Source of the DNA: a virus
Lineage: Duplodnaviria > Heunggongvirae > Uroviricota > Caudoviricetes
DNA: 14,548 bases
IMG/VR virus record: IMGVR_UViG_2529293142_000010
Reading direction: 5' to 3' (one strand)
Numbering within the stretch: the stretch's first letter is position 1; each line of letters starts with the position of its first letter. The translations under genes were made by a program, and so were the position numbers. The notes beneath the pieces were generated by a model. That model was not told the origin of the DNA, made no database searches, and saw only the letters and a list, made by a program, of their open reading frames with translations. Positions 1 through 14,548 of this stretch are shown here, piece after piece.

Positions 1-209
1 TCTGTCTTGGAAAGAAAAATTACGTGTTCTTCGGTAGCGATCACGGCGGCGAGCGTGGTGCACTGCTGTACGGGCTGATCGGCACCTGCCGTCTGAACGG
101 TATCGATCCGGAAGCGTATCTGCGCCATATTCTGAGCGTACTGCCGGAATGGCCCTCCAACCGTGTTGACGAACTCCTGCCATGGAACGTAGTTCTCACC
201 AATAAATAA
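1..209 (+). CDS. IS66-family transposase, C-terminal fragment (5' end lies outside the window)
   Basis: Frame is open from the window edge to TAA at 207-209. The translation ...KKNYVFFGSDHGGERGALLYGLIGTCRLNGIDPEAYLRHILSVLPEWPSNRVDELLPWNV matches the conserved C-terminal motif of IS66-family transposases as I remember it. Confidence 0.8.
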   Translation, partial: CLGKKNYVFFGSDHGGERGALLYGLIGTCRLNGIDPEAYLRHILSVLPEWPSNRVDELLPWNVVLTNK

Positions 210-238
210 GCGTCAATACGGTGCTCCGTTGACGCTTA
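207..238. repeat. Perfect 10-bp inverted repeat (TAAGCGTCAA / TTGACGCTTA) with a 12-nt spacer at the IS terminus
   Basis: Read directly from the sequence: 207-216 and 229-238 are exact reverse complements. The left arm overlaps the transposase stop codon. Confidence 0.7.
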
Positions 239-239
239 C

Positions 240-335
240 AGGCAAGGCGACGCGGATCTGGTTCTTTGTTGTTTCCCGCTCGGACTTGAATGTTTCGGCA
301 AGGTCACCGCTACGAGTCTGGTCTGATATGGCCAT
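240..335 (-). pseudogene. 5' remnant of a gene interrupted by the IS66-family element (first 32 codons MAISDQTRSGDLAETFKSERETTKNQIRVALP)
   Basis: ATG at 335-333 is preceded by AGGAG (rc of 344-348) with an 8-nt spacer. The frame runs into the IS-derived sequence and stops at 215-213 after 8 further codons. Confidence 0.45.
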
Positions 336-350
336 TTGATAAACTCCTGA

Positions 351-376
351 AAACAAAAACCCGCCAAGTGGCGGGT
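351..376 (-). terminator. Rho-independent terminator closing the minus-strand cassette
   Basis: GC-rich hairpin CCCGCC-AAGT-GGCGGG at 360-375, followed on the minus strand by TTTTTGTTT (rc of 351-359). It lies about 20 nt downstream of the stop of the small ORF at 397 and is asymmetric, with no T-run on the plus-strand side. Confidence 0.75.
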
Positions 377-396
377 CTACAGGAACAACTCTAAGT

Positions 397-567
397 TTAT
401 TTTTTCTGTTTAAAATTGTCCAACTCAGGTTCTTTAACGCTTTCTGTCATGTAATCCAATCCATCAAAAGGTACTTCAAGCATTATACTGCTTTCATAAT
501 CAGCCATGGATTGCTCTGCTTGCGTTGGCTTACTTTGCTGTGAGTTGTCATTATTTGATGTTGTCAT
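397..567 (-). CDS. Small acidic hypothetical protein, 56 aa (MTTSNNDNSQQSKPTQAEQSMADYESSIMLEVPFDGLDYMTESVKEPELDNFKQKK); below the ORF-track length cutoff
   Basis: ATG at 567-565 lies 3 nt after the stop of the upstream membrane-protein gene (571-573); stop TAA at 399-397, just before the terminator. Same strand and same AT-rich composition as its neighbour. Hand translation gives 11 D/E, 5 K and no R. Confidence 0.5.
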   Translation of the reverse strand: MTTSNNDNSQQSKPTQAEQSMADYESSIMLEVPFDGLDYMTESVKEPELDNFKQKK

Positions 568-570
568 CAA

Positions 571-1125
571 CTATGCCTTATTTATCAAAAGAAAAGTAAC
601 CGATAATATGAAAAAACCGAAAGATAACGCAATTCCTTCAAAAAGATAACGAGCATAAACTGCCTTTTCTTTATGAAGACTTTCGATCAATTCAACAGCT
701 TTACCATACTGAAACATATGGTATCTAAGCGTTTTAATTTTATCACCGTAAAGTAAAAAATCATGCTCTTCTTTTCGCTTATGAATAGGCATTTTTGGTA
801 TATCTTTCAGTCCCCAAGTACGCCATAGGAAAAAAAAGCACATAACAATACAAACAAAGCATAGATATGCACAAAGTATAGATAATGTTAAAAACCAATT
901 ACTCTTTAGCCCACTTTTGAAATCAACAGTCCCAAATACAGCCAGTAGAGCAGAGGTTTCTACAGCTAAAATAGCAAGAAGGTAGTTAACTTTGTCCTCA
1001 AGACGACGATATGTTGATTTTGCTTCCTCATATCTATCTTTATAATATGACGAAATAAAATCAGCGCCTATAGTCTCAATTGCCTTTTGTTCTTCTGTTG
1101 TATCTATTGGCGAACACTTGCTCAT
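571..1125 (-). CDS. Hypothetical inner-membrane protein, 184 aa, three predicted TM helices with a charged N-terminal region of about 45 aa and a basic loop of about 60 aa
   Basis: ORF track. Hydrophobic stretches are LLAILAVETSALLAVFGTV, FLTLSILCAYLCFVCIVMCFFFLW and GIALSFGFFILSVTFLLI. Very AT-rich, roughly one third G+C by eye against over half in the structural genes. ATG at 1125 lies 7 nt after the stop of the upstream gene. Confidence 0.75.
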   Translation of the reverse strand: MSKCSPIDTTEEQKAIETIGADFISSYYKDRYEEAKSTYRRLEDKVNYLLAILAVETSALLAVFGTVDFKSGLKSNWFLTLSILCAYLCFVCIVMCFFFLWRTWGLKDIPKMPIHKRKEEHDFLLYGDKIKTLRYHMFQYGKAVELIESLHKEKAVYARYLFEGIALSFGFFILSVTFLLINKA

Positions 1126-1132
1126 TTCTTAA

Positions 1133-1480
1133 TCAACCAACAACTTTCTTACACGGGAAAGAGCCAATAATTTTCGGAGCATCCATGCTGTTCTGCAACA
1201 ACTGGACGTTCAGGAAACGCGTTTTAGTGCCCGGTCGATGGATATACTCGAACCCATAATTGTTGCCATCTTTGGCAGGCATCAACTCCATTTTGATCTG
1301 CATGCCTGTACCGTCTTTACCCAACATTTTTACTTTTTGGGATGTTACTGTTTCGCCATTGATTTTAAATAATGAGTCAGGGATCGCATCCATACGAAAG
1401 TTGCCGCATTGCATCGTTATGGTGTTTGCACTTACACCAACAGACACTAACGCCAGCAATGAAAATATCCATCGTTTCAT
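1133..1480 (-). CDS. Hypothetical secreted/periplasmic protein, 115 aa, with an N-terminal signal peptide (MKRWIFSLLALVSVGVSA|NT) and two Cys in the mature part
   Basis: The ORF-track frame 1133..1561 begins at an upstream alternative start; the first ATG with a Shine-Dalgarno (GAGAGGA upstream) is at 1480-1478, and the protein from there opens with a classic positive-hydrophobic-AXA signal peptide. There is no lipobox, so it is not called a lipoprotein. The start is 2 nt after the stop of the frameshifted tail gene. Confidence 0.7.
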   Translation of the reverse strand: MKRWIFSLLALVSVGVSANTITMQCGNFRMDAIPDSLFKINGETVTSQKVKMLGKDGTGMQIKMELMPAKDGNNYGFEYIHRPGTKTRFLNVQLLQNSMDAPKIIGSFPCKKVVG

Positions 1481-1482
1481 TT

Positions 1483-1978
1483 CTATAATCCTCTCTGCAA
1501 AGCAGTGCTGGATGGCATATCCTGCGCACCGCGCGCTTCGCACATCATATCCATGTACCACGCCTGGCCCCTTGTGTCGCCAGTGTACATAATCCCGCGC
1601 ACAATATAAACGCCATCCGTTGCGATGCTGGCAGGCTGCGATGTGGTGCCGCTTAGCGTGATATTTCCATCCGTGTTCTGGTCGGTGATCTGACCACCAG
1701 CCATCGCAATATCGTTGTTCGACAACGCGGTACGATACACTGCAGCCTGATCCAGCTGAATGAGTCCGTTAACCCGGATGTTCGGATTAATAAGCGCGCG
1801 GACGTTTACGCCGTTACCGATAGTCTGCTGCGGCATGCCAATAAGCCCGGTAGCGCTGTTTGAGCACAATCGCTTCATGAACATATTCGTTATTCGCCAC
1901 CATCTGGCGCTGACCATCCACGAATTGCCATGTTGCGCCACATTGCCCGGCTACGTTATCCATTAGGTGCCGCGTCAT
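1483..1978 (-). pseudogene. Phage tail-region gene of about 165 aa carrying an internal +1 frameshift (two overlapping reading frames)
   Basis: An ATG at 1978-1976 overlaps the stop of the upstream 190-aa gene in an ATGA arrangement and opens a frame with good codon usage that stops at 1816-1814 (MTRHLMDNVAGQCGATWQFVDGQRQMVANNEYVHEAIVLKQRYRAYWHAAADYR). The ORF-track frame 1483..1941 has junk-like W/C-rich translation at its 5' end but well-behaved codons from about 1830 down to its stop. Total length 496 nt is not a multiple of 3. Confidence 0.45.
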
Positions 1979-2547
1979 GCCAAAGAGTACCGCCCCCGGG
2001 GGAATACAGTAGCAGGCATTTCAGGCGTCAGGCCTTCGGTCGCGCCTTTGGCTTCGAAGTCTTTCATCAGCGCACGGTTTACATCAGCGACCGTGTAACC
2101 GGCAGCCAGCGTCTGTGAGGTTATACTGGTGGCAAAAGCCAGATCAGTATCTGCTGCCTGAATCAGGACGTAGGAATCAACCGGACTGTCTTTTCCTGTA
2201 ACCGAGTAGCGAATTTCACCGCTGAAAATCAGTCCGTAGTTGCGACCATCACTCTGGCCCACGTCCGCCGCGTCAACTTCCCGCACTGTCCCGACGTCGC
2301 TTGCCGACACCTCCGGCGCGATACCGTCGTAACCCGCAATCAGACGCACTTTCGAAAACTCCTGCCCGGTAATTCGGTTCACAGTATCTGCCGAGAGGTT
2401 ATAAATTTTGATAGTCCCTACCCGGGACGCGCTGCTGATGTTGAACCAGTCGATCGTAAAGGTGACTTTGAAATCACTTAGCTCAATTCCCTGACCGTTC
2501 CCGTCCACAAGCTGCAGCTCGAAATGTCTCATCCAGTTCTGTGACAT
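1975..2547 (-). CDS. Phage tail component, 190 aa (function not recognised)
   Basis: ORF track; ATG start; 2-nt gap after the upstream gene stop; typical codon usage; sits in the post-tape-measure tail gene chain. Confidence 0.7.
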   Translation of the reverse strand: MSQNWMRHFELQLVDGNGQGIELSDFKVTFTIDWFNISSASRVGTIKIYNLSADTVNRITGQEFSKVRLIAGYDGIAPEVSASDVGTVREVDAADVGQSDGRNYGLIFSGEIRYSVTGKDSPVDSYVLIQAADTDLAFATSITSQTLAAGYTVADVNRALMKDFEAKGATEGLTPEMPATVFPRGRYSLA

Positions 2548-2549
2548 GC

Positions 2550-2852
2550 TTACTCCGTTGATACCAGTAAATGGCTGCGACCGCCCAGGTCAGTTTTTGT
2601 GGGGTAATCCTGTGTGTTGTCATCACAGACCACCACCAGCTTAAAACCAAGCCCCATACAGGCGTACTGCGCCAGCAGGTCAGCACCAGTGACGAGAGGA
2701 ATACCGGAGATTACCGGCTCCCCTCTGTCGCTCTGCAGGTCCATAATCCAGTACAGATCGCGCCATATGATGCTAATCCACCAGGTGACACCACCCAGGA
2801 CGATGCTGAACTGCTGGTTGTCCGCTGTCAGCGGAATTTCCTGAATTGTCAT
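2550..2852 (-). CDS. Phage tail component, 100 aa (function not recognised)
   Basis: ORF track; its ATG overlaps the stop of the upstream 41-aa ORF (ATGA). Confidence 0.65.
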   Translation of the reverse strand: MTIQEIPLTADNQQFSIVLGGVTWWISIIWRDLYWIMDLQSDRGEPVISGIPLVTGADLLAQYACMGLGFKLVVVCDDNTQDYPTKTDLGGRSHLLVSTE

Positions 2853-2974
2853 TTGCCGCCCCCCAGTAATGACGCCACGTTACCCGTGATGCTTTTCAGC
2901 AGTGAAGTATCTGGAGGTTTTGTGGTTTTGTTGCCGCTGTTCTGTACCGCCGACGTGCTGGCCCCTTCCTTCAT
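2849..2974 (-). CDS. Small hypothetical protein, 41 aa (MKEGASTSAVQNSGNKTTKPPDTSLLKSITGNVASLLGGGK); not in the ORF track
   Basis: Its ATG (2974-2972) overlaps the TGA of the upstream ORF and its TGA (2851-2849) overlaps the ATG of the downstream ORF, both as ATGA. Codon usage looks ordinary. Confidence 0.4.
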   Translation of the reverse strand: MKEGASTSAVQNSGNKTTKPPDTSLLKSITGNVASLLGGGK

Positions 2975-3270
2975 GTTGGTTTTATCCGCGACGGTAATCT
3001 GCTATGTCCGGGAGATAATGACCTCCCGTCAGGGTGAGGACGGCGGACTAGGACGTTTTCGGTTGTCTTGTCCGTCGTCACTTCCAGCGCCCGGATCAAC
3101 ATGTTGCTGTACAGCCGTTTACCGGTTACCACATCGAAGGGGATACGGCTTTCCTGCAGACCCAGTAGCTCCTGATACGTCTGCTGAGGACTCAGGCCGA
3201 GCAGGCTGGTAGCCGTCAGGTTACTGGCAAAATCCAGCAATGCGCCGCCACCGGCAAAACCAACCTCCAT
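2971..3270 (-). CDS. Phage tail component, about 99 aa
   Basis: ORF track frame 2971..3276 begins at a GTG; the first ATG is at 3270. The 5' two thirds have good codon usage; the last 25 or so codons are rich in rare codons (AGG, AGA, ATA, TTA), so the true 3' end is uncertain. Confidence 0.55.
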   Translation of the reverse strand: MEVGFAGGGALLDFASNLTATSLLGLSPQQTYQELLGLQESRIPFDVVTGKRLYSNMLIRALEVTTDKTTENVLVRRPHPDGRSLSPGHSRLPSRIKPT

Positions 3271-3392
3271 CACCACTTCTGACGGTTTTTATAGGCATGA
3301 TCAGCGACAGCGGCCCCGACCTCTACCGGATGCTCTGTTATTTCAAGCATATCTGTGTGCTTCTCTGAAATAACAACACTGGGAACAATCAT
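3270..3392 (-). CDS. Possible small ORF, 40 aa (MIVPSVVISEKHTDMLEITEHPVEVGAAVADHAYKNRQKW) filling the gap after the tape measure gene
   Basis: ATG at 3392-3390; its TGA overlaps the ATG of the next gene by one base (TGATG). The Shine-Dalgarno is weak (AGGA immediately adjacent to the ATG). It contains the 10-bp inverted repeat at 3336-3375. Confidence 0.25.
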   Translation of the reverse strand: MIVPSVVISEKHTDMLEITEHPVEVGAAVADHAYKNRQKW

Positions 3393-3439
3393 TCCTATTT
3401 TTCTGCTCTGCTGATGAAAAAGTGTAGAGAGAATATCCA

Positions 3440-5428
3440 CTAACCCACCCTCACCTGATTACTTCGCATGACCTGAGCATTTGCAGACTGTTGCCGACGT
3501 GCAACCTCATTACCGACAGCGTGCGGATCTCCGCCACCGTAAATGTGGTAGGTATTTTGCTGGTTAACCTCTGTCACTTTGCCACTAATTCCCGCCACGG
3601 CAGCCTTATTAATCAGCTCTCGAGAATAGATATTTCTTCCATTCTCATGCTGGATAATGCTGCTCATCAATGCTGACATGGTTTGCGGATCGCTCATATT
3701 CAGGGCAGCCCGGGGATCCACTCCCAGTCGTTGCGATACAGCCCTGATATACGCGGTTGTGTTGTTATTATCAGACGCAGGTGCCCAGGTAGAGATAATT
3801 TTCTCCACACTGTTTATTCCCCGTCCGGCGTACAGCATTAACTGACGAGCAAGAGCCCGTAATCCATCAAAAGCGGTTTCAAATCTGGCAAATCGCCCGC
3901 CCGGGCGTTCAAGAGAAGCCCCAGCCTGACCAGCAAAATTAAGATTTCCCGGATTGTTATTCCGTTCTCCTCGTTTCGTAGCCTGTGCATGTTGTTCCGG
4001 CTCATCATCACCAAACCAGCCGCGTACCGTCCGGCCCACACTGCGGGGATCAAATCCCCAGTGCTCTTTAATCCAGTCGGCAGTACTGTTAGCGCTGTCT
4101 GTAACCATCGGCATCGCTGACGGATTTTCGCTGCCCTGATTAAGTATCTGTTTGCCGATGCTGACGGCATCAGCCCAGCGGCCATCTTTGATAGCGTTGA
4201 GCAGGTCGGCGATCATGTTCAGCATTTTGCTGAATTCGCCCATCTGGTCGATGAAGTTGCTGAAATCCCACTTCAGGGACCATGATTTGGGGTCAATATT
4301 GAGCAGTTTCGCCAGCGCTTTCACCAGGTCGTTAACGGTCGTTTCAAGGTCACGAACCATCTTCAGCGCGGCATCAACCTCCGGTTTCCACTTGCCCCAG
4401 TCAATCAGGCTGTCGCCGCCTTCCTTCCAGGTCTGATAGTCCTCCCACAGGAGGGCAATCCCCGCCGCCAGCGCGGTAATGAGGCCAATCGGCGACATCC
4501 AGAACGTACTGTTCAGAATGCGCAGCGCAATCGTCAGTGCGCCAAACAGCGAGATCAACTCCCGCGTTTGCTTATCCAGCGATTGCCACCAGGTGATGAG
4601 GCCTGATGTCCCCTCAATCAGTCTGAAGAACAACCGCCCGATAATATCCCCGAGCGCCAGAATGCCTTTTATGGCTTTCGTCAGGGTCTGCTCGATACGC
4701 GGGAAGTTGTCCAGGATATGGCGGCGCAGAGTGTCCAGCGAACCCGCAAGCCCACCCGCAAGATTAGAGCCGATTTTGTCACGGGCCATGCCTGCCATCG
4801 CGCCAAACTCACGCAGGGAGGTCATAAATTTGTTGGAGCTTCTGGCCGCCTCGTCAGCATTGAAGCCGATAGCTTTCGCCATTGCGCTGTACTGCCCGGA
4901 GAAGCCACCCACACCGCGACGCACAGCCATCAGGGTATTTTCGTCAATGCCCAGCATCTGCGCATACTGGTTAGCACGGTAATACGGCATGTCGCTGAGC
5001 TTCTGGCCTACCCCTGTAAAAATAGCGGCCATGTCACGCATGTTACCGCTGGCATCCCGTGTCTGTACCCCCAGACGATTCAGAAATCCCTCCGCCCCGG
5101 GATTATTACGAATAAACCGGGAGAGGTTTTCCAGAGAAGATCGCGCAGCGTCCACGCTGCCGCCAACCTGCGAAACCGCATAGCCAATAGACTGAATTCC
5201 CTGGACTGTCGCTCCGGTGCGCTGTGACGCCCAGTAAAGATTATCCAGACCGGAGGCGATCTTAGCCGTGAAGGCCACCACGGACAGCGCAGTTCCTTCG
5301 ACGGCCAGCCCCATTTTGATGACATTTGCAGTTGTACCGGCGAGGACAGAACCGAATTTTTTCGCTCCTGCATCATCCACACTGAAGCCAAGCGAGACGA
5401 GGAAATCTTTAATAGTTTCAGCGTTCAT
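3440..5428 (-). CDS. Tail tape measure protein, about 662 aa
   Basis: Large ORF directly downstream of the frameshifted chaperone; Ala/Gly-rich helical N-terminal part; internal hydrophobic segments (LISLFGALTIALRILNSTFWMSPIGLITALAAGIALLW). The ORF-track start at 5449 is a TTG; the first ATG is at 5428, preceded by GGAGAGAGG. Confidence 0.85.
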   Translation of the reverse strand: MNAETIKDFLVSLGFSVDDAGAKKFGSVLAGTTANVIKMGLAVEGTALSVVAFTAKIASGLDNLYWASQRTGATVQGIQSIGYAVSQVGGSVDAARSSLENLSRFIRNNPGAEGFLNRLGVQTRDASGNMRDMAAIFTGVGQKLSDMPYYRANQYAQMLGIDENTLMAVRRGVGGFSGQYSAMAKAIGFNADEAARSSNKFMTSLREFGAMAGMARDKIGSNLAGGLAGSLDTLRRHILDNFPRIEQTLTKAIKGILALGDIIGRLFFRLIEGTSGLITWWQSLDKQTRELISLFGALTIALRILNSTFWMSPIGLITALAAGIALLWEDYQTWKEGGDSLIDWGKWKPEVDAALKMVRDLETTVNDLVKALAKLLNIDPKSWSLKWDFSNFIDQMGEFSKMLNMIADLLNAIKDGRWADAVSIGKQILNQGSENPSAMPMVTDSANSTADWIKEHWGFDPRSVGRTVRGWFGDDEPEQHAQATKRGERNNNPGNLNFAGQAGASLERPGGRFARFETAFDGLRALARQLMLYAGRGINSVEKIISTWAPASDNNNTTAYIRAVSQRLGVDPRAALNMSDPQTMSALMSSIIQHENGRNIYSRELINKAAVAGISGKVTEVNQQNTYHIYGGGDPHAVGNEVARRQQSANAQVMRSNQVRVG

Positions 5429-5657
5429 TATCCTCTCTCCATTTCTCAATGCGCCGCTGGTTATCCGCTTTTACCGCCAGATGGTCATTCAAGAGAGCAA
5501 TGTCATACAAATCGACAGAGCCATCTTTAAGTGCTGTATAGGGAATTAACCCGGCGTCAACCGGATTGAGAAGGTAGGACAGCCCGTCCGGCAGGCTGTT
5601 AAACGTCAGCCCTGTTGCAGGCTCTGCGTCGTGCTGGTAAGGGGTGTAGGCAAAAAA
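5425..5657 (-). other. -1 frame extension of the tail assembly chaperone (GT-like fusion product); slippery heptamer T_TTT_TTG at 5657-5651
   Basis: The chaperone reads ...GGA AAT TTT TTG...; after a -1 slip the frame stays open for about 77 codons across the otherwise non-coding 177 nt between the chaperone stop and the tape measure start, ending at TGA 5427-5425 beside the tape measure ATG. Confidence 0.65.
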
Positions 5658-6058
5658 TTTCCCAGCGAATCGGCGACCACCCGCGCCACCAGATGAAGCA
5701 TGACCAGCAAGTCAATATCATCAAACATCAGTTCGCCATGGGTAAATACCGGCACCCATCCGTCCATATGACGCCGCGATACCACCGCAAGACAGGGATG
5801 AATAATCGCATCGGTGTCATCTTCGGTCAGGGAAGACAGTTCCTCAGCGATACGCGGGAGCATGGTTTCAAACACCGGTTTTAACTGCTCGAATTTCACG
5901 GTGTCGATTTTGCCATCAGCAGGCAAACGGGAGCGAATGCTCCCGAAATCTGACATCATTCCCGCCAGTACCGGCAGAAGTTTGCGGGTCACTTTCAGCT
6001 GGTCAAAAACGCTGAGTTTTGCCGTGCGATATTTCACACCTTTGATTTCGAATTCCAT
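5606..6058 (-). CDS. Tail assembly chaperone (G-like), 150 aa
   Basis: ORF track; located between the tube-like gene and the tape measure gene; followed by a long open -1 frame. Confidence 0.75.
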   Translation of the reverse strand: MEFEIKGVKYRTAKLSVFDQLKVTRKLLPVLAGMMSDFGSIRSRLPADGKIDTVKFEQLKPVFETMLPRIAEELSSLTEDDTDAIIHPCLAVVSRRHMDGWVPVFTHGELMFDDIDLLVMLHLVARVVADSLGNFLPTPLTSTTQSLQQG

Positions 6059-6061
6059 GTA

Positions 6062-6502
6062 TTAAAACTCCCCGAGAACCTGGTCAATCTTGCCGCAGTC
6101 AAACACCCACGGCATCGTATTACCGGTTTTAGCGTTGGCGTTATCCGGTTGTTTCTGGAACGCAACACTGCGTGCCGTGATGATGTCGCCGCTGACCTTG
6201 TTGCGGATCACGATAACGTTATTCCCCCATGTGGCAGAAGACTGGCTCTGTGCGTTATACGCCAGCGACAATTTTTTATTTGTCGGTGATGTCTTCAGAA
6301 GGTTAACGGTAATCGTCCCGCTTTTTTCTGCATGGAGGCTGTGCATTACTTCACCATCAGCACCGATGGTCATGGTGTTTTTAGGACCGCCCATCGCAAC
6401 CACAATCCCCTCTTCAGAACTTGCAGAACCGTACCCGAGGTCAATCGAACCGGTCGGCCCGGTCAGCGTCGCAGTGACATCCATAAAAGAATAGGTAGAC
6501 AT
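6062..6502 (-). CDS. Tail tube-like protein, 146 aa (resembles what I recall as the DUF3277 family)
   Basis: ORF track; ATG start; size and position between the sheath-like gene and the chaperone, matching the sheath-tube-chaperone-tape measure order of contractile-tail phages. Confidence 0.7.
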   Translation of the reverse strand: MSTYSFMDVTATLTGPTGSIDLGYGSASSEEGIVVAMGGPKNTMTIGADGEVMHSLHAEKSGTITVNLLKTSPTNKKLSLAYNAQSQSSATWGNNVIVIRNKVSGDIITARSVAFQKQPDNANAKTGNTMPWVFDCGKIDQVLGEF

Positions 6503-6512
6503 TCACTTCCCC

Positions 6513-7658
6513 TTAGCGAACAACGTTAATCTGTACGTCAGCGTAATGAACCGCGCCTGCAAGTTTTATTGCAGCCTGAATCACCGGAGCCTTACGGGCT
6601 TCACGTTCTGATTGTGCCTGTTCATCCAGCGGCTGGGCGTATACGTAATAACCTTTGGGCAGTGTGTCACCTGATGACAACTGACCAAGGTCGCCCCCGT
6701 TCCATACACCCGGAGCAATCAGTCCATTCTGAACGGCCTGATCCAGTGATTTTTCAACATTTGATAACAGTCGGGTAATACCGGCTTCAGTCTGGGGAAC
6801 TTTCGTGGTGCTGGTATAAAGCAGGTTATAGAGGTTGGTCTGCACATAATTCTGTAACCAGTCCAGGCCGTGGCGTTCATCAAAGAAATCGCCGTTAGCC
6901 ATCACTCCCTGCTGGAGGATAGCCGTATCATTCTGGTAGTACACGAATACATTGCAGTTTTTTGCATCAAGTGCCGATGCCTGGCTGACTGTCAGTGTTT
7001 CATACCCGACACCCGGCTCCTGCTTAAACTTGAGCGTAATCGCGGTATTACTGCCATTGAAATTAACCGTGAATGCCCGGCCAAATGCAGATAACGCAGC
7101 GTATTTATTACCCGATGAATACTGAATAAAACTGCGTGAATATCCGGCATTTTTCAGTTTTGATGCCAAATCATCGCTGGATGCAGTCTGCAGGCATTTC
7201 TCATCGCTTGTCGTAATCGCCAGAATACGGCTTACAGAAGAGGATTCGATCGCCGCAGCCACTTTCAGCCAGTCTGCATCCGGAATATCTTCATCGTCTG
7301 CAATCCCCAGCCCATACCATGAAGTATAATCGAGCATGGCATTCACAGCCTGCTCCAGCGTCTCAGGCGTGGCCTGTTCGCTGTCTCCCTTCGTTTTCAC
7401 CCAACGACCAACAAAAACCTCCTGAGGTTTCGGTGATTGAGAGAAAAACACCTGCGCAGCCTTATATTCTGGTGATTCCACGCCAAAATCTTTTCCAATA
7501 TCTTCCGCGGCAGAATAACGGCGAATGCGCTCACTTACCGGAATGATTGTGGACGGGCCGAGAATGAGTAATGCACCAAAATTTCGCCCTGATGCTGCAC
7601 GCGGCGACATGATCACATCAACATTAACAACGTTTGATACAGGCAAGCCCTGTGCCAT
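6513..7658 (-). CDS. Tail sheath-like or major tail protein, 381 aa (resembles what I recall as the DUF3383 family)
   Basis: ORF track; ATG start; size and position immediately upstream of the tube-like gene. Confidence 0.7.
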
Positions 7659-7661
7659 AGC

Positions 7662-8270
7662 TTAATCTCCGAAAAAGATGACTGGTGCTTCCACCAGCGA
7701 TTTAATACCGTACTCGCGCACAACCTTCCGGCGCAGACGCACCGTCATATCGTAGCGGCGGACCCATTGCTGATTAATAAGTTCAGGGAAGGGAGTCAGA
7801 CCTGTGTAATCGCCAAGAGACAGCCCCAGCGCATTCAGTGCTGCGTTGTTCTGCGGTACAGATATACCGTCACGAAACCGGGACGCATACACCATCCCCG
7901 CCGGACCATAAAACGAAGCCATACACTCAATCGTTTCATGCCGCCAGAGCTGAGAGCCATCATCGGTCTGTCTGGTGAATGCCGGACTGTCATCACCTGA
8001 CCATCCGATAACCCCAAACGCACACCAGTTCGTTTCAGCCGGTAGCAGTGGCGGCTGCTCTTTCTGCCAGCGCGGACGAACCATCCCGGCAGACAGACCG
8101 GAAACGTTACGCATCCACTGGCTTAACAGCCTGTCGAGCGCTTCGTCATAATCCGGATCGCCACTGGTTGGTATCAGCCATCCGCGCTCTGTGCTGGTGT
8201 TATTGCTCAACCGGAGTTCCCCCATCAAACGGCAGCAACTCACAATGCGCCTGAACGAATCCGACACCAT
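7662..8270 (-). CDS. Head-tail joining or tail terminator-like protein, about 202 aa
   Basis: ORF-track frame 7662..8288 starts at a TTG; the first ATG is at 8270 and another at 8225. No good Shine-Dalgarno at any of them, so the start is uncertain. Overlaps the 3' end of the upstream gene. Confidence 0.65.
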   Translation of the reverse strand: MVSDSFRRIVSCCRLMGELRLSNNTSTERGWLIPTSGDPDYDEALDRLLSQWMRNVSGLSAGMVRPRWQKEQPPLLPAETNWCAFGVIGWSGDDSPAFTRQTDDGSQLWRHETIECMASFYGPAGMVYASRFRDGISVPQNNAALNALGLSLGDYTGLTPFPELINQQWVRRYDMTVRLRRKVVREYGIKSLVEAPVIFFGD

Positions 8271-8589
8271 AAGCTGTATACGGGTCAACGAAGGTCACAC
8301 GGTAATCACGGCCCTGATACGTCACGATATCGGAATCACGGCCAGTCTGTCCCTGCGTCAGTCGCTCAGTCGTCACAATCAGAATTGCACCACTGATTAC
8401 CTGCCCTGCCTGCATACGGCGGTTTTCCAGAGAGCGATCAACAGTTACGACTCCGGCAAACTGCTTTTTAACTTCACTGTCGCTGCCGATCCCGTCCTCA
8501 TCCACCGTTTGCACTCGGCGTGTTACCCACAAATTGAAGTCGCAAAAATCGGGGTCAAAAAGCACATCTGTTACATCAAGAGTCGGCAT
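8200..8589 (-). CDS. Head-tail connector or tail completion-like protein, 129 aa
   Basis: ORF track; ATG start; overlaps the upstream gene stop by 14 nt. Confidence 0.7.
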   Translation of the reverse strand: MPTLDVTDVLFDPDFCDFNLWVTRRVQTVDEDGIGSDSEVKKQFAGVVTVDRSLENRRMQAGQVISGAILIVTTERLTQGQTGRDSDIVTYQGRDYRVTFVDPYTAYGVGFVQAHCELLPFDGGTPVEQ

Positions 8590-9130
8590 CTTTATCCCTC
8601 ACAACATGGGTAATGGCTCTGCGATATTGCCCGGTGTCAATTAATGGTTTCGCCAGATCGGTTCCCGGAGATTCGCCAGCAGCACGCCGGGCAAGTTCCA
8701 GTGTTGCCCCCTTGCGCCCCCGACGAGCCCGGGCTTCAACAGTGCTGTCAGCAAGCGGCGTAAAGCCGGTAATGGTCATGTAACGCCTGACGCCATTAGC
8801 GGCCAGCGTTCCGGCACGGTTGAGTGCGCGTTCTGCTCCCGCAGCATTACCATCAAGTGCAGCCTGCGCCGCGGCTTTGAGCTGCGGCACCGTCTGCTCT
8901 TCTGCCGATTTAACGCCGGGGACCAGGTGAGGTCGTGGCGGGATGTTCTGCTCTGGTGAGCCGTATTCGTTGAGGTAACCGATGCCCGCATTACCAAACG
9001 GAACATCATCCCGCCCGCTGTCTTCCGAAGGGATGCCGACCAGCACATCTTTTTTGGTTAACGACCTGAGCGCATCCAGAATGGCCTTAGCGTTATCCAC
9101 CCTCGTTGTTACACCGCTTTTGAAACTCAT
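8576..9130 (-). CDS. Phage structural or head-tail joining protein, 184 aa
   Basis: ORF track; ATG start; 4-nt overlap with the upstream gene. Confidence 0.7.
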
Positions 9131-9534
9131 AGCTGGCGACCGCCTGCACCGAACATCGTGATCAACTGATAAAATTCAGCGCCATATCGGGTGTTATTCC
9201 AGAAGCCTGCATCAGGATTCAGCGTCGCGCTGATGTCATAACTGACACTTACCTTGTCAACGGACTTTGAGGACTGAACACCATTGGTTGAGCCGCCAGG
9301 GCCACCAGCCAGCATCGCCCTGCTGTCAGCCGCCCAGAGCGTCATGTAGTGCGCAACGAACAATCCGGCAAAGTACGGAAACAACTTTTTGCCGGTGACG
9401 TTTTCGCTCAGCAGTTCATCTGCCAGATTCAGACGAAACTGGATTTGCGCTTCGGGATATTTGGCAGGGTCAGCAAACTGCGGGAAGTCGCGGCGAAAAT
9501 CACTTACCGCTGGCAGACTTTGATTCTTTGGCAT
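9127..9534 (-). CDS. Head-tail adaptor-like protein, 135 aa (possibly DUF4054-like)
   Basis: ORF track; ATG start; position after the capsid gene. Confidence 0.65.
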
Positions 9535-9721
9535 TTTTTACCTCGTTACGCGCGTCTGTGGCTTTGCCAACGGATACTTCCGCGTGCGCACGAGTGAACC
9601 AGTGCGTGGCAACGTCTTCCTCCACAGCATGACGGCCTTTAACAAACTCGCGCCGTGAACCGTCGGGAAGCGTGAGCACAAACGGGGTATGTACGTGTAT
9701 TACTGCATTATTTTTTGCCAT
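9500..9721 (-). CDS. Small hypothetical phage protein, 73 aa, Lys-rich C-terminus
   Basis: ORF track; ATG start; lies between the capsid and adaptor genes; 35-nt overlap with the downstream gene start. Confidence 0.5.
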
Positions 9722-9762
9722 CGGGTCATCCTTAATGGCCCCGCCAGGGGGCCATATGGCTG

Positions 9763-10704
9763 TTAAATGCCATCAACGTACGAAATGGTTTCTTTGTACA
9801 CTGGCTCGACTGCACCCAGCTTGCCGTAGTAAGTGACGATCTGATACAGACCGCGATACTGCACCGGCACGCTCTGAAGCGGAACCAGCGGGTAGCGGAC
9901 GTATTTTTTATCGTTGGTGTACGCAACCATGCGATCCTTATTCCCCACACCACGGCCTTTCAGCCATTTAACCGCGCGGATATTCAGCGGAACACCGTTC
10001 TGGTGATAGCTGATGGTGTTGGTCTGAAGGTACGTCAACAGGGACTGGTTACCCGCAGATGAAACGATGATGCTGGACAACAGAGCAAACTGCTCAGGCG
10101 GGATCAGCAAATCACGCGGAACCACAGAGTAACCGGAAGCGGCCCACGCATCAGACAGCACCTGGTTAATGCTTGCGCGGATTTCGTCCGGTGTTGAGGT
10201 TGCCCACGTTTTGGCAGCGTTGTTGACAGGCACACCGTCCAGGGTAACAAGACCTTTCAGGTTTAATGCGGAATCGCCAACATATACCTGTTCATCGTTA
10301 TCCATCTGCCATTTCAGTTGCATACCGTCATACTTCTGCGTATCAATCGGGCGGCCGACCTGCTGAGCAGCCTGCAATTCTATGACCGTCCAGCCAAGTT
10401 CCATCCCCCACAGGTTCAGCGGGTTACCGGATTTGCCGATATCCACGTTCACGCCAGCAATAGCGGTTGAGTCTTTGCCTACCCAGTTTTTGCCATTCGG
10501 ATTTGCACCAGTACCCGCAGCGGCGAAGCTGGTATTCGTCCAGCTGGAAATGTCATCTGCGATGGAGACATCTTCACGCAGTTGGATATCGCGGGTCCAG
10601 GTGTACCCCACCAGTGGCAGGTTCAGCGTCTGGTCGAGTCGCTCCAGCTCCCCGATGAGAAAGGCACCAGAGCTGTCAACGGTTGCCTGATCAAAAGTAA
10701 TCAT
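9763..10704 (-). CDS. Major capsid protein, 313 aa
   Basis: ORF track; ATG preceded by AAGGA 9 nt upstream; the longest head-module ORF after portal and MuF, directly downstream of a decoration-like gene. Confidence 0.75.
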   Translation of the reverse strand: MITFDQATVDSSGAFLIGELERLDQTLNLPLVGYTWTRDIQLREDVSIADDISSWTNTSFAAAGTGANPNGKNWVGKDSTAIAGVNVDIGKSGNPLNLWGMELGWTVIELQAAQQVGRPIDTQKYDGMQLKWQMDNDEQVYVGDSALNLKGLVTLDGVPVNNAAKTWATSTPDEIRASINQVLSDAWAASGYSVVPRDLLIPPEQFALLSSIIVSSAGNQSLLTYLQTNTISYHQNGVPLNIRAVKWLKGRGVGNKDRMVAYTNDKKYVRYPLVPLQSVPVQYRGLYQIVTYYGKLGAVEPVYKETISYVDGI

Positions 10705-10715
10705 TCGTCTGTTCC

Positions 10716-11222
10716 TTAAATCTTCCAGGAAATTTCTGCATTGCCGTCAGCATCACCGGCACCTGTGAATTCAGCGTTGGTCAGCACCACGTTTTTGCCA
10801 CTGACTGACGTGGCCATGAATCCACCCAGCGGCACTTTGATGGATTCATCAGTGGAGACGACAACGTATACCGGGTCGCCTTTTTTGATGGTGCTGGCAT
10901 CAAAATCAGAACCGAGATTAACGGTCACGTAGCCACGCTTCATTGCGTCGCCCGGGAAGTTCTTGCCACTCCCCACCTGGCGAACCATGTCCGGCTGCGA
11001 AGTGGTCGGATAAGGGCGCACATAGATCCCCTTCACCTTGTCTGCGGTATCACCATCTGCCAGCGGCACGAAAAAACCGTCATCATCGTATTTACCAGCC
11101 AGCCCATAGGCAGCAAAGGCGTTATCGGATTTAAGGACCACCGGTTCGACGGTTAAGTCCTGCGGGCGAGAGACAGCCCCGGCAATGCCAACAGGCATCC
11201 GGTACAGAAATACATTATTCAT
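10716..11222 (-). CDS. Head decoration or structural protein, 168 aa (possibly DUF2190-like)
   Basis: ORF track; ATG start; Gly/Asp/Val-rich; position immediately upstream of the major capsid gene. Confidence 0.65.
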   Translation of the reverse strand: MNNVFLYRMPVGIAGAVSRPQDLTVEPVVLKSDNAFAAYGLAGKYDDDGFFVPLADGDTADKVKGIYVRPYPTTSQPDMVRQVGSGKNFPGDAMKRGYVTVNLGSDFDASTIKKGDPVYVVVSTDESIKVPLGGFMATSVSGKNVVLTNAEFTGAGDADGNAEISWKI

Positions 11223-11224
11223 TT

Positions 11225-11482
11225 TTACCCTTTACGGTTTGCCCAGAATTCGGCGTTTTGTTTGTTCAGGGAAGCGATACTGGTCATGCCCATGTTTGGG
11301 CGCTGTGCATCGCCGGTGGTGGCGCGGGTGTTTCGCCCTTTGGCAATCTCAGACACGGCATTAAACGCCATGTCGACCGATTGTTTCGGTAATTTGCGGA
11401 TATCCGCATCACCGACTATCTGGCGAACCAGCGTTTTGTCAGCAGAAGCCAGAACCTCACGTTTGAACGCGGTCGGTTTCAT
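11225..11482 (-). CDS. 85-aa ORF that is probably the C-terminal part of the upstream scaffold/protease-like gene rather than an independent gene
   Basis: ORF track. Its frame stays open, with no start codon, for a further 90 codons upstream to 11752, encoding an acidic low-complexity stretch ([49 protein letters not shown]...) and overlapping the 3' end of the 11650..12444 ORF. Confidence 0.5.
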   Translation of the reverse strand: MKPTAFKREVLASADKTLVRQIVGDADIRKLPKQSVDMAFNAVSEIAKGRNTRATTGDAQRPNMGMTSIASLNKQNAEFWANRKG

Positions 11483-11649
11483 CTTACGGCTCAGATCAAT
11501 ACCCGGAACAATAACTTCGGCACGCCAGGCTGAGTCACCAGTAATCGTGGTTTCCTCTTCATCGTCCTCGCCGTCACCGGTCGGATTATCGTCAGGCTTA
11601 TTATCGTTATCGCCCGTGGCATTTCCTTCCAGCTTAGCCAGCAGGGCTT

Positions 11650-12444
11650 TCAGTAATGTTTTGAGGTCATCATCACTGTCGCCGGTTGGGCCTCCCCCAT
11701 CTCTGGTGCTTTGTCCGGTAGTGGTTGCTGCGGGGACAGGTTGATATTGAGATTAACGCCCTGCGGCAAATCCCCCTCATCTCCTGTAACCGATGCGGGA
11801 GCCGACTCCACCAGTTCGTTCATGGTGTCGGCATCTCCTGTCTTGATGGCCGCACGCATGCGGTTCCACCAGTTTTTCTTTTGATTTGCCATTGTGTCTC
11901 TGTCTCCAATTGCACAACGATTTCCGGCTCTGCCTTTAGGGACAAGAGCCACATGGTTTCCGGTAATATCGACCTGCTCAGCTTTACCTGGCTCGGTCTG
12001 CTCGTACTCCGCGTCATAGCCGCACGACACTTCGCGCAGGCCATCTTCGATAAGCTGAATGGCGTTTTCGTCTTTGACGATAAGGTCAGCCAGCATCAAA
12101 TCAGACTGCTCACCCGTCCCGCGCCGGACATTCTGGAGGTGCCCGACAGCAAGCTCTTTCCAGTTCTCGGGATTTACCAGCCGCACATTCCCGTTTTCAT
12201 CTTCAGGATGCAGAATCGTGATGCTCATCCCTTCGAATGAGGCAAGCGTGGCCGGATGGAATACCTGCTCAGGAGAACGCGTGACGACTATTTCACCGAA
12301 CTTATCGGGTTTCAGTTTTGGCAGGTCATCAGCACCATAGAGCTGCTTACCTGTTCGTCCTATCGGCACGTCTTTGCACAGCAACGAGCCGTCAGCCAGC
12401 TGATAGCGGGTTTCCCCCAGCCGGGTATTGAAAAAATATTTCAT
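11650..12444 (-). CDS. Scaffold/protease-like head protein, 264 aa as written (DUF2213-like); probably truncated by a frameshift
   Basis: ORF track; ATG start with AGGT upstream; position after the MuF-like gene. A run of five C on the plus strand at 11694-11698 (GGGGG on the coding strand) is where a 1-nt length change would join this frame to the 85-aa ORF frame, giving about 400 aa. Confidence 0.7.
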
Positions 12445-12458
12445 GTGTTACCTGCGAT

Positions 12459-13232
12459 TCAGGCGGGATAAGAATGGGAGGTGGGAAAAACGATTTCTTT
12501 ATAACAGCGACAATTCGGGAGCTCGCCAGCGTGACCGGTCATGCCATCAAGCGTTGGAGGTTTGCCCCATTCGACAAATTTACCTTCCATTTCCCGATGA
12601 GAATGCCTGACGTCACCATCTTCGGCTGTACGCCAGATATAACCATTCGAACCAATTGCCAGCGCACGCGCCTGATCCAGCGCGCCGGTTGCACGTCCAA
12701 GTTCAGTACGGGCAATCAGGTCAGCTCTGGACTTTGCTATATCACCCGATGCGGCTATTTCTTTAGCAAAATGTTCCGCTCTCCCACCGGTCACAACAGC
12801 TTCAATCGCCCGATTCTGGATGTCGTACACCCTGTCAGCCGCCTCGAGGGGTAGCGATTTAATGTACTTAACCTGTTCAGCAACGATGGATTTCATCACC
12901 TGCCCTGGCGGGGCACTGTTTACCAGATTGCGTAGCTCACGGCTGATGGTTTTGCTGTGTTTACGCCACTGCTCATCATTCTTGCGCACAATATCGGCGG
13001 TAAAGTTTTCCGCGACCTTTGTCGCCCAGGGGGTGATGATTTCACTGTAGCGTTCCAGCGCCTCAATAATTTCCGTGATACTGTCATTTGAACCATCGTA
13101 GTGACCATTTACGATGTCCCCTACCGCCCGCGCTATCCTGCGTAGGCTGGTTCGATACCGGATTTCCGCCTGACGGTTCCTGCGGTTCGTCATCAGGTTC
13201 GCCGATGCCGGGCGGCGCTTCATCTTCGGCAT
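12459..13232 (-). CDS. Phage head morphogenesis protein, MuF / SPP1 gp7-like, 257 aa
   Basis: ORF track; ATG at 13232 preceded by GAGGA; position directly after the portal gene; overlaps the portal 3' end by 149 nt in another frame. Confidence 0.8.
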   Translation of the reverse strand: MPKMKRRPASANLMTNRRNRQAEIRYRTSLRRIARAVGDIVNGHYDGSNDSITEIIEALERYSEIITPWATKVAENFTADIVRKNDEQWRKHSKTISRELRNLVNSAPPGQVMKSIVAEQVKYIKSLPLEAADRVYDIQNRAIEAVVTGGRAEHFAKEIAASGDIAKSRADLIARTELGRATGALDQARALAIGSNGYIWRTAEDGDVRHSHREMEGKFVEWGKPPTLDGMTGHAGELPNCRCYKEIVFPTSHSYPA

Positions 13233-14469
13233 TCTCGATGTCCTCGTCGGTAATGGATGCCCCGATGCCGGTTACGTCAGAATTTTCTCGCAAATCAGTC
13301 ATAGCGGCCTTCAGTGTCATCAGACCATCACCCAGCGCTGTACTGATTGCGTTGGTAGTGTTTAACGCCACCGTTGAGCGATCGACATCAGACATTTGCC
13401 AGAGCGGGTTAAACTCAAACGTGAAATCGTCCGGCAGCGGCTTGCCAAGCTCCGAACGATGCATGATGTCCAGTATCCGCCGCACCGGAAGACGTAAACG
13501 CCTCTCCTGCAACGAACTGATGCGGTCGTAATAGTTGGCAAGGTCTGCATCACCGGTAGAAAATCCTTTCGGGGACTGTCCGAACAACCGCACCAGTGGG
13601 ATACCAACAGCGCCACTAATCTGTTCTGCAAACTGTGATAGGATGTCATCCAGACCACTGAAGCTGTACTGATGCGTTTCAAACTTATCCCGCGAGTCCA
13701 TGAGCGTCATGCCTTCATTGCTCTGGAACTGTCGAATCAGGTCGATATTCTTCAGCAACGCTTCATACGCAGGACCACCAAGTGCGATAAGCTCGCGTAG
13801 CTTCTCCACGCTGTAGGTACGCAAATGCGCTTTGTAGACCAGCTGCGCCGCGCCGACAGTAGCGCTGTCGAACGCGGTAAGACGATCCCAGATACGCTCT
13901 ACAACCGACATTCCCCATTCGTTCTCGGTCATCTTCTGCTGAAATGGCAGCGTGACGCCATCAAAGCGAATCAGTCGACTGTGATGAATGCGCCAGGCAG
14001 GAATTCCCGTTGCTGTGGTCACCACATCGTAAAACTCAGGTTTACCCAGGTCCGGCCCCATATCTTTAATGCGGCGGGTCAGTACCGGGTCAATCATCCA
14101 GCGGTCGAGCGGGAGAATCCCCTTAAACTTGCCCTTACCGATGGTTTCGGGTCGCAGCGGGGTCATTGGTGCCTGCCCCTCAATCATGATGAAACCCACC
14201 GCGCCGCCGTAGAGACGCGACCATTTCAGCACGTCATTCAGCGCATCCCAGATTTGCAACTCATCCAGTTGTGATTCGAGAATGCCACGATCTTTTGCAT
14301 CAATTTCCGAAGTGATGCGAATGCCTTTGCGGGTCATATCATCCGGGATAGCATCGACTGCTTCGCCGATGATCCAGGATGAACGATAGGACCATTCCAC
14401 CAGCATGCGGTTACGACTGGTGAAATTAGCCCGGTAGGTGGATGCTGAGTGCTGGTTAGGTGTCTGCAT
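13084..14469 (-). CDS. Phage portal protein, 461 aa, with an acidic C-terminal tail
   Basis: ORF track; ATG start; first large gene of the head module; typical portal size; Asp/Glu-rich disordered C-terminus. Confidence 0.8.
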   Translation of the reverse strand: MQTPNQHSASTYRANFTSRNRMLVEWSYRSSWIIGEAVDAIPDDMTRKGIRITSEIDAKDRGILESQLDELQIWDALNDVLKWSRLYGGAVGFIMIEGQAPMTPLRPETIGKGKFKGILPLDRWMIDPVLTRRIKDMGPDLGKPEFYDVVTTATGIPAWRIHHSRLIRFDGVTLPFQQKMTENEWGMSVVERIWDRLTAFDSATVGAAQLVYKAHLRTYSVEKLRELIALGGPAYEALLKNIDLIRQFQSNEGMTLMDSRDKFETHQYSFSGLDDILSQFAEQISGAVGIPLVRLFGQSPKGFSTGDADLANYYDRISSLQERRLRLPVRRILDIMHRSELGKPLPDDFTFEFNPLWQMSDVDRSTVALNTTNAISTALGDGLMTLKAAMTDLRENSDVTGIGASITDEDIENAEDEAPPGIGEPDDEPQEPSGGNPVSNQPTQDSAGGRGHRKWSLRWFK

Positions 14470-14500
14470 CCCTACGCGGGCAATAAAATTCTCATAACCA

Positions 14501-14548
14501 TCAGCTGTGGCCTGCGCAGTTCGCCGCAGGACTCGTTTGTTTCGTGCC
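14501..14548 (-). CDS. 3' end of the upstream gene, presumably terminase large subunit (only the last 15 codons are in the window)
   Basis: A minus-strand frame is open from the window edge to TGA at 14503-14501 with common codons (...GTKQTSPAANCAGHS). The identity is inferred only from the usual terminase-portal order. Confidence 0.3.
   Translation of the reverse strand, partial: GTKQTSPAANCAGHS

Follow-up and report, generated by a model that had tools for sequence, protein, structure and literature searches.

The minimal baseplate of the cyanophage Pam3, a myophage, is built from six components, of which the tube initiator, plug and hub make up its inner core along with the spike (PMC9942802). 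Assembly of the full baseplate also needs the spike gp20, the sheath initiator gp21, the wedges gp22 and gp23, and the fibre gp24, whose genes follow the tape measure gene in the order given (PMC9942802). A second described system is SEN34, a Salmonella phage of the genus Brunovirus, which forms plaques, is induced by mitomycin, and has a contractile tail (PMC5261728). Related prophages of Escherichia coli are located at the yfhH/tadA locus; examples are those of O55:H7 DEC5B and CB9615, and the records labelled 'vB_EcoM-606R2'.

Here we compare these systems with a 14,548-nt stretch of viral DNA (the window), in which every gene lies on the minus strand. SEN34 covers 81% of the window at 82% identity, and its structural module is collinear with that of the window, with two small genes placed between the SEN34 hub and spike. 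Prophages of this family are common in E. coli: among complete genomes, 252 of 5426 contain at least 80% of the window, with identities of up to 98.8%. The best fully annotated intact relative, the prophage of E. coli O55:H7 DEC5B (L002), aligns with window positions 239-14548 at 97.8% identity with eight single-base gaps. It is highly probable that the window covers the head to the baseplate of a temperate myovirus prophage that is SEN34-like (Brunovirus-like) and of the type found in E. coli or Shigella, with a tail module that is collinear with that of Pam3, a spike gene cut by an IS66-family element, and distal genes that lie beyond this element. The features that bear on this reading are given below from high to low coordinates.

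11225..12444, minus strand: head gene of the DUF2213/Pa193_gp24-like type; its intact form has 406 aa, and a private -1 at 11695 in a C run shifts the frame here.
3440..5428, minus strand: tail tape measure gene, 662 aa, intact; tblastn match over residues 1-663 at 98.6% to the DEC5B homologue, with a weak match to TIGR01760.
2853..3440, minus strand: tube initiator gene of the Dit_like, Pam3 gp17-like type, which has 195 aa in its unbroken form; PF21821 matches the two fragments as well as the intact homologue.
2550..2852, minus strand: baseplate plug gene, 100 aa, intact; PF22479 (Pam3_gp18) at E 1.3e-23, and Pam3 gp18 in the PDB at E 1e-3.
1483..2547, minus strand: baseplate hub gene, encoding 354 aa in its unbroken form; matches to phrog_196 (baseplate hub) at E 2e-88 and to Pam3 gp19 at E 2.4e-12.
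1133..1480, minus strand: gene for a predicted exported protein of 115 aa; phrog_3443, with a signal-like N-terminal sequence.
571..1125, minus strand: gene for a predicted three-helix membrane protein of 184 aa, variable cargo with a GC content of about 0.34; phrog_18554.
397..570, minus strand: gene for an acidic protein of 56 aa, variable cargo; phrog_18231, found in intact relatives.
357..378, minus strand: hairpin resembling an intrinsic terminator, which closes the cassette and precedes the start of the spike gene; 9-bp stem with six GC pairs, and a T tract.
240..335, minus strand: codons 1-32 of the baseplate spike gene, whose intact form has 250 aa; tblastn match of residues 1-32 at 100% to the DEC5B spike.
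240..247, no strand assigned: 8-bp target-site duplication AGGCAAGG (read as CCTTGCCT in the orientation of the genes); in L025 this octamer directly adjoins the opposite end of the IS.
1..239, plus strand: right end of an IS66-family element, with the 3' end of tnpC at 24-209 and the terminal ...CGCTTAC; partial match to NF033517.

The initial annotation, made from the sequence alone, described only small genes in the approximately 1.9 kb that follow the tape measure gene, and there are indeed no ORFs longer than 190 aa between 3440 and 1483. Its further statement that no large baseplate gene follows the tape measure was not borne out, as positions 1483-3440 contain the genes for the tube initiator, plug, and hub. 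These identities were checked in three ways, using Pfam, PHROGs, and the solved Pam3 structure 7YFZ. The intact homologue of the tube initiator matches PF21821 at E 1.7e-33 and gp17 of PDB 7YFZ at E 6.5e-18, while the match of the hub to PF22759 (E217_GP41) lies below the Pfam cut-off. In intact relatives the tape measure gene is followed by genes for a 195-aa Dit_like protein, a 100-aa Pam3_gp18 plug, and a 354-aa hub. The short length of the ORFs in this region of the window results from single-base indels that break up the 195-aa and 354-aa genes. The tube initiator is spread over three frames (-1 at 3289/90, +1 at 3049, and +1 at 3028, giving three tblastn pieces) and its stop codon is altered at 2854; the hub is divided into ORFs of 190, 54, and 152 aa by a -1 at 1991 and a +1 at 1861. 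Programmed frameshifting in these two genes was ruled out by the uninterrupted ORFs found in all relatives. A nonsense change at 3004 was also ruled out, since counting on the alignment places it at the third codon position of the ancestral frame. The presence of short ORFs downstream of a tape measure gene is, then, not evidence of a missing baseplate: here they stem from frameshifts in the tube initiator and hub genes of a compact Pam3-type baseplate, and the remainder of the module would be hidden by the edge of the window, which falls inside the IS.

Some further features were observed in this part of the tail module. The tail assembly chaperone gene runs from 6058 to 5606, and next to it a 54-aa DUF6889 ORF (5582 to 5418) lies in another frame and overlaps the start of the tape measure gene; this ORF may be the usual frameshift extension of the chaperone. 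In the hub of L002 (13246-14310), the N-terminal part (residues 23-89) weakly matches WD40-type beta-propeller designs, probably because of an extra beta domain or a composition effect. A 65-bp deletion in one relative that shares the IS junction of the window (L009/L017; compare window positions 1475-1539) fuses the hub gene with the gene for the 115-aa exported protein to give a 449-aa ORF. The deletion is a further sign of decay in this lineage.

The spike gene of the window is interrupted early in its length. The sequence switches from spike to IS at 239/240, and the spike ORF continues into the IS to a stop at 213; a search of the window for an intact central spike gene (gp20-like) gave codons 1-32, then the IS. 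The intact homologue of this spike matches PF18352 and spike structures in the PDB (E 1e-13 to 1e-7). An IS had been reported here initially, and it is the right end of an IS66-family element (positions 1-239): it has the tnpC transposase, the terminal inverted repeat GTAAGCG, and an 8-bp duplication at both junctions, one in the window and the other in the IMG/VR contig L025. The same right junction was found in at least 13 draft contigs (L009-L012, L014, and L017-L024), all of which end inside the IS, and the insertion into the spike is therefore real. The junction occurs in none of the complete E. coli genomes, and an exact 40-mer across it had no match in genome_contigs or viral_contigs; the exact tape measure protein of the window is also not on record. 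The call of a defective prophage in the initial annotation is supported by this lesion, in which the spike is cut after codon 32 and which is seen independently in the 13 or more contigs.

The complementary end of the element was also sought. A left junction was predicted as CGCTTAC followed by CCTTGCCT and the continuation of the spike, and a search for it found it once, with the same octamer, in L025 (viral_contigs); the pattern had no match in metagenome_contigs. Beyond the IS, the remainder of the spike gene in L025 is followed by genes for a sheath initiator (117 aa), a Baseplate_J protein (399 aa), a DUF2612 wedge (226 aa), a fibre (287 aa), and a chaperone (200 aa), and further on by an alternative fibre tip with a chaperone and a pin fragment, all of them open. 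This distal stretch is 99.97% identical to that of the intact relative L007, and the distal proteins have matches among solved structures from Pam3, E217, and Pa193, namely those of the spike, sheath initiator, and wedges. The IS piece of the window is 98.8% identical, and that of L025 98.9% identical, to one full 2.5-kb copy in L026, with 158 bp between them left uncovered. The matching junctions, the shared octamer, and the fit of both pieces to the L026 copy indicate one simple IS insertion.

These observations bear on where the missing genes of the window are located. It had been suggested that the receptor-binding genes are encoded elsewhere, and this is not supported: L025 carries the distal baseplate and fibre genes intact directly beyond the IS. 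Baseplate and fibre genes elsewhere in the same prophage had been named initially as the observation that would speak against a loss of the module; such genes are present in the lineage, in L025 and the intact relatives, although this stops short of the source genome itself. Judged from L025, a contig that is not tied to the strain of the window, the source genome probably has its distal genes directly beyond the IS, where about 4.5-5.5 kb of distal baseplate and fibre genes would adjoin the element beyond the start of the window. Against this, an IS-mediated deletion or inversion may have occurred in this particular genome.

The order of genes in the tail module would be that of Pam3: sheath, tube, chaperone, tape measure, tube initiator, plug, hub, spike, sheath initiator, two wedges, and fibre. 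Within this order, the 1.9 kb after the tape measure supplies the tube initiator, plug, and hub, which in Pam3 form the inner core assembled around the hub-spike complex. A low-GC set of three small genes with a terminator fills a slot between the hub and spike, and the baseplate operon resumes at the spike. A 2.5-kb IS66-family element has inserted after spike codon 32 with an 8-bp duplication, and the window begins inside the element. We infer the assembly roles of the SEN34-like baseplate proteins from Pam3, the SEN34-like family having no structure of its own. By this analogy, the hub-spike complex would nucleate the baseplate, and a spike reduced to its 32 N-terminal residues would block tail assembly. 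With this nucleating spike disrupted, the prophage would be unable to make a baseplate, and it is predicted to yield no infective particles with a contractile tail of the kind shown for SEN34. It is very likely that the prophage is defective owing to the IS in the spike gene, and this verdict is independent of the indels; the frameshifts in the tube initiator, hub, and head gene would be either added decay or sequence errors.

The frameshifted genes were also taken initially as a sign of decay. The tube initiator, the hub, and the DUF2213/Pa193_gp24 gene are all frameshifted in the window, but as evidence of decay they are open to question because the indels may be sequence errors. A second private -1 was observed at 11221-11226, in a T run between the DUF2213 gene and the start of the cement gene. 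All eight single-base indels are private to the window, being absent from close relatives that include contigs with the same IS junction, and six of the eight lie in homopolymer runs. Compared with its closest relative, L010, which shares the IS junction, the window has six indels and five substitutions, all located in 359-4345, and there are no differences in 4346-11126 (range test P about 3e-4; 11 kb compared). In natural E. coli variation, indels are far fewer than substitutions. The ratio of indels to substitutions near 1, along with the clustering, is explained by local sequence error no less well than by decay. The placement of all 11 differences within one 4-kb stretch, with none in the next 6.8 kb, points to either a local sequence-quality problem or unusually local decay.

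An explanation in which the IS insertion is the sole real lesion, and the eight indels that break the tube initiator, hub, and DUF2213 genes arose as errors of sequencing or assembly, has a probability that we place slightly below even. It agrees with the absence of the indels from every close relative, with their frequent position in homopolymers, and with the 6:5 ratio confined to 359-4345. The insertions at 3028 and 3049 do not fit it as readily, as they are outside homopolymers, and the -1 at 1991 recurs in two independent read-set assemblies (L005 and L006), both of which have many other indels. Matches to the 190-aa hub fragment are confined to two short read-set assemblies, which differ from the window in what lies downstream. 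In addition, such a pattern of indels is also what slippage produces in a dead prophage. The frameshifts need to be checked against reads before pseudogenes are called.

The genes between the hub and spike lie in an AT-rich cassette, as was recognized initially: the GC content changes from 0.52-0.56 to 0.34-0.40 in the region of about 250-1500. In the relatives L002, L007, and L015, the identical three low-GC genes are flanked by a hub gene and a spike gene that are both intact. In intact relatives the cassette is followed by the genes for the spike, sheath initiator, Baseplate_J protein, DUF2612 wedge, fibre, and chaperone. The cassette has not replaced a distal tail module, because the same genes occupy the same place in intact relatives; the description of the prophage as truncated is not supported either. 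The low-GC genes occupy a slot for accessory genes that is native to the baseplate operon. It is distinctly unlikely that the distal module (spike, wedges, and fibres) was lost and that the AT-rich cargo and the IS stand in its place, leaving a truncated element. The window does hold nothing past spike codon 32, and IS elements can cause adjacent deletions; set against this are the native position of the cargo genes and the signature of simple transposition, in which the left junction and target duplication of L025 lead into the whole distal module. Although the baseplates of the Pam3-type family are small, with six components in Pam3 (PMC9942802), the idea that the small proteins encoded after the tape measure alone make up a complete minimal tail tip is almost certainly wrong, as even Pam3 needs the spike, sheath initiator, two wedges, and fibres besides the tube initiator, plug, and hub, all intact relatives encode spike to fibre downstream, and two of the three genes concerned (tube initiator and hub) are broken here. 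For annotation, the appropriate call is a prophage made defective by an IS66 insertion in its spike gene, not a truncated one.

A mildly interesting by-product of this analysis is confined to the variable slot between the hub and spike and its uncharacterized low-GC genes. The 115-aa gene keeps its place next to the hub gene across SEN34-like phages, with tblastn matches in SEN34, YP3, Mulock, GZ7, and Omnitron at 31-61% identity, whereas the genes that come after it vary among relatives. Its protein has just 59-61% identity to the homologues of SEN34, YP3, and 606R2-type records, and this gene appears to diverge fast because the adjacent hub-side DNA is about 94-98% identical in the 606R2-type records. 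Searches of the cassette proteins against Pfam (E up to 10), NCBIfam, and PADLOC yielded nothing usable. The 184-aa protein had no Pfam match and no tblastn match among 50,697 phage records, and its single-sequence AlphaFold model is all helical with low confidence (pLDDT 62). This protein has a weak match to PADLOC PycTM (17.6 bits, E 9e-4), and no pyrimidine cyclase gene was found next to its gene; at that score and without an adjacent cyclase, the protein does not qualify as a Pycsar PycTM effector.

Six different contents of the slot were recorded in all: window 397-1480, L001 11180-11851, L003 15006-16254, L004 9566-10410, L005 5902-7500, and L006 3611-4341. None of them has a significant match to a PADLOC defence family, and DUF2335 in L003 is the sole family match. 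With different small genes in each relative examined, the slot has the appearance of a hotspot for accessory genes within the baseplate operon. The cassette resembles phage morons, which are accessory genes of late operons that have a terminator of their own, in its low GC content (0.34-0.40 vs 0.53), the terminator-like hairpin at its 3' end, and its variable content at a fixed slot. Morons have their own promoter, and no convincing promoter was found at the cassette. A more specific proposal, which we regard as unlikely, is that the slot is a hotspot for exchangeable genes that benefit the host, and that the low-GC set (115-aa exported, 184-aa three-helix membrane, and 56-aa acidic proteins) forms an undescribed superinfection-exclusion or abortive-infection module that has stayed intact while the tail genes around it decay.

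At their end, relatives carry a Pin-type invertase with oppositely oriented alternative fibre-tip and chaperone genes (L002 6255-8419 and L025 1-1745), which suggests an invertible host-range segment at this location.

The element is of a kind that is already known, and nothing in it is new: a SEN34-like prophage with a compact baseplate of the Pam3 type, inactivated by an IS66-family insertion. The insertion itself is similar to other IS66-family insertion sequences (tnpA-tnpB-tnpC) in the C-terminus of tnpC, the GTAAGCG/CGCTTAC termini, the 8-bp duplication, and the length of about 2.5 kb by comparison with L026, and differs in that the window holds just the last 239 bp of the element. Sequence-level homologues of the Pam3 proteins gp17 (tube initiator), gp18 (plug), gp19 (hub), gp20 (spike), gp21 (sheath initiator), and gp22 (wedge) are encoded downstream of the tape measure gene of the SEN34-like family in the Pam3 order (PDB 7YFZ; PMC9942802); the Pseudomonas phages E217 and Pa193 are further systems of comparison. 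The SEN34-like family differs from Pam3 in its hub of 354 aa, about 125 aa longer than the 229 aa of Pam3, and in having accessory genes between the hub and spike; a fibre with an invertible tip and Pin also sets the relatives of the window apart from Pam3. SEN34 and the E. coli relatives share with the window the gene order from portal to hub, at nucleotide identities from 82% (SEN34) to 97.8% (E. coli), and the slot for small genes between the hub and spike, and they carry a distal module of baseplate, fibre, and Pin invertase genes at the end of the prophage. Unlike them, the window has a spike cut by an IS66-family element and private frameshifts in three genes, and its hub-spike cargo is unlike that of both SEN34 and 606R2.
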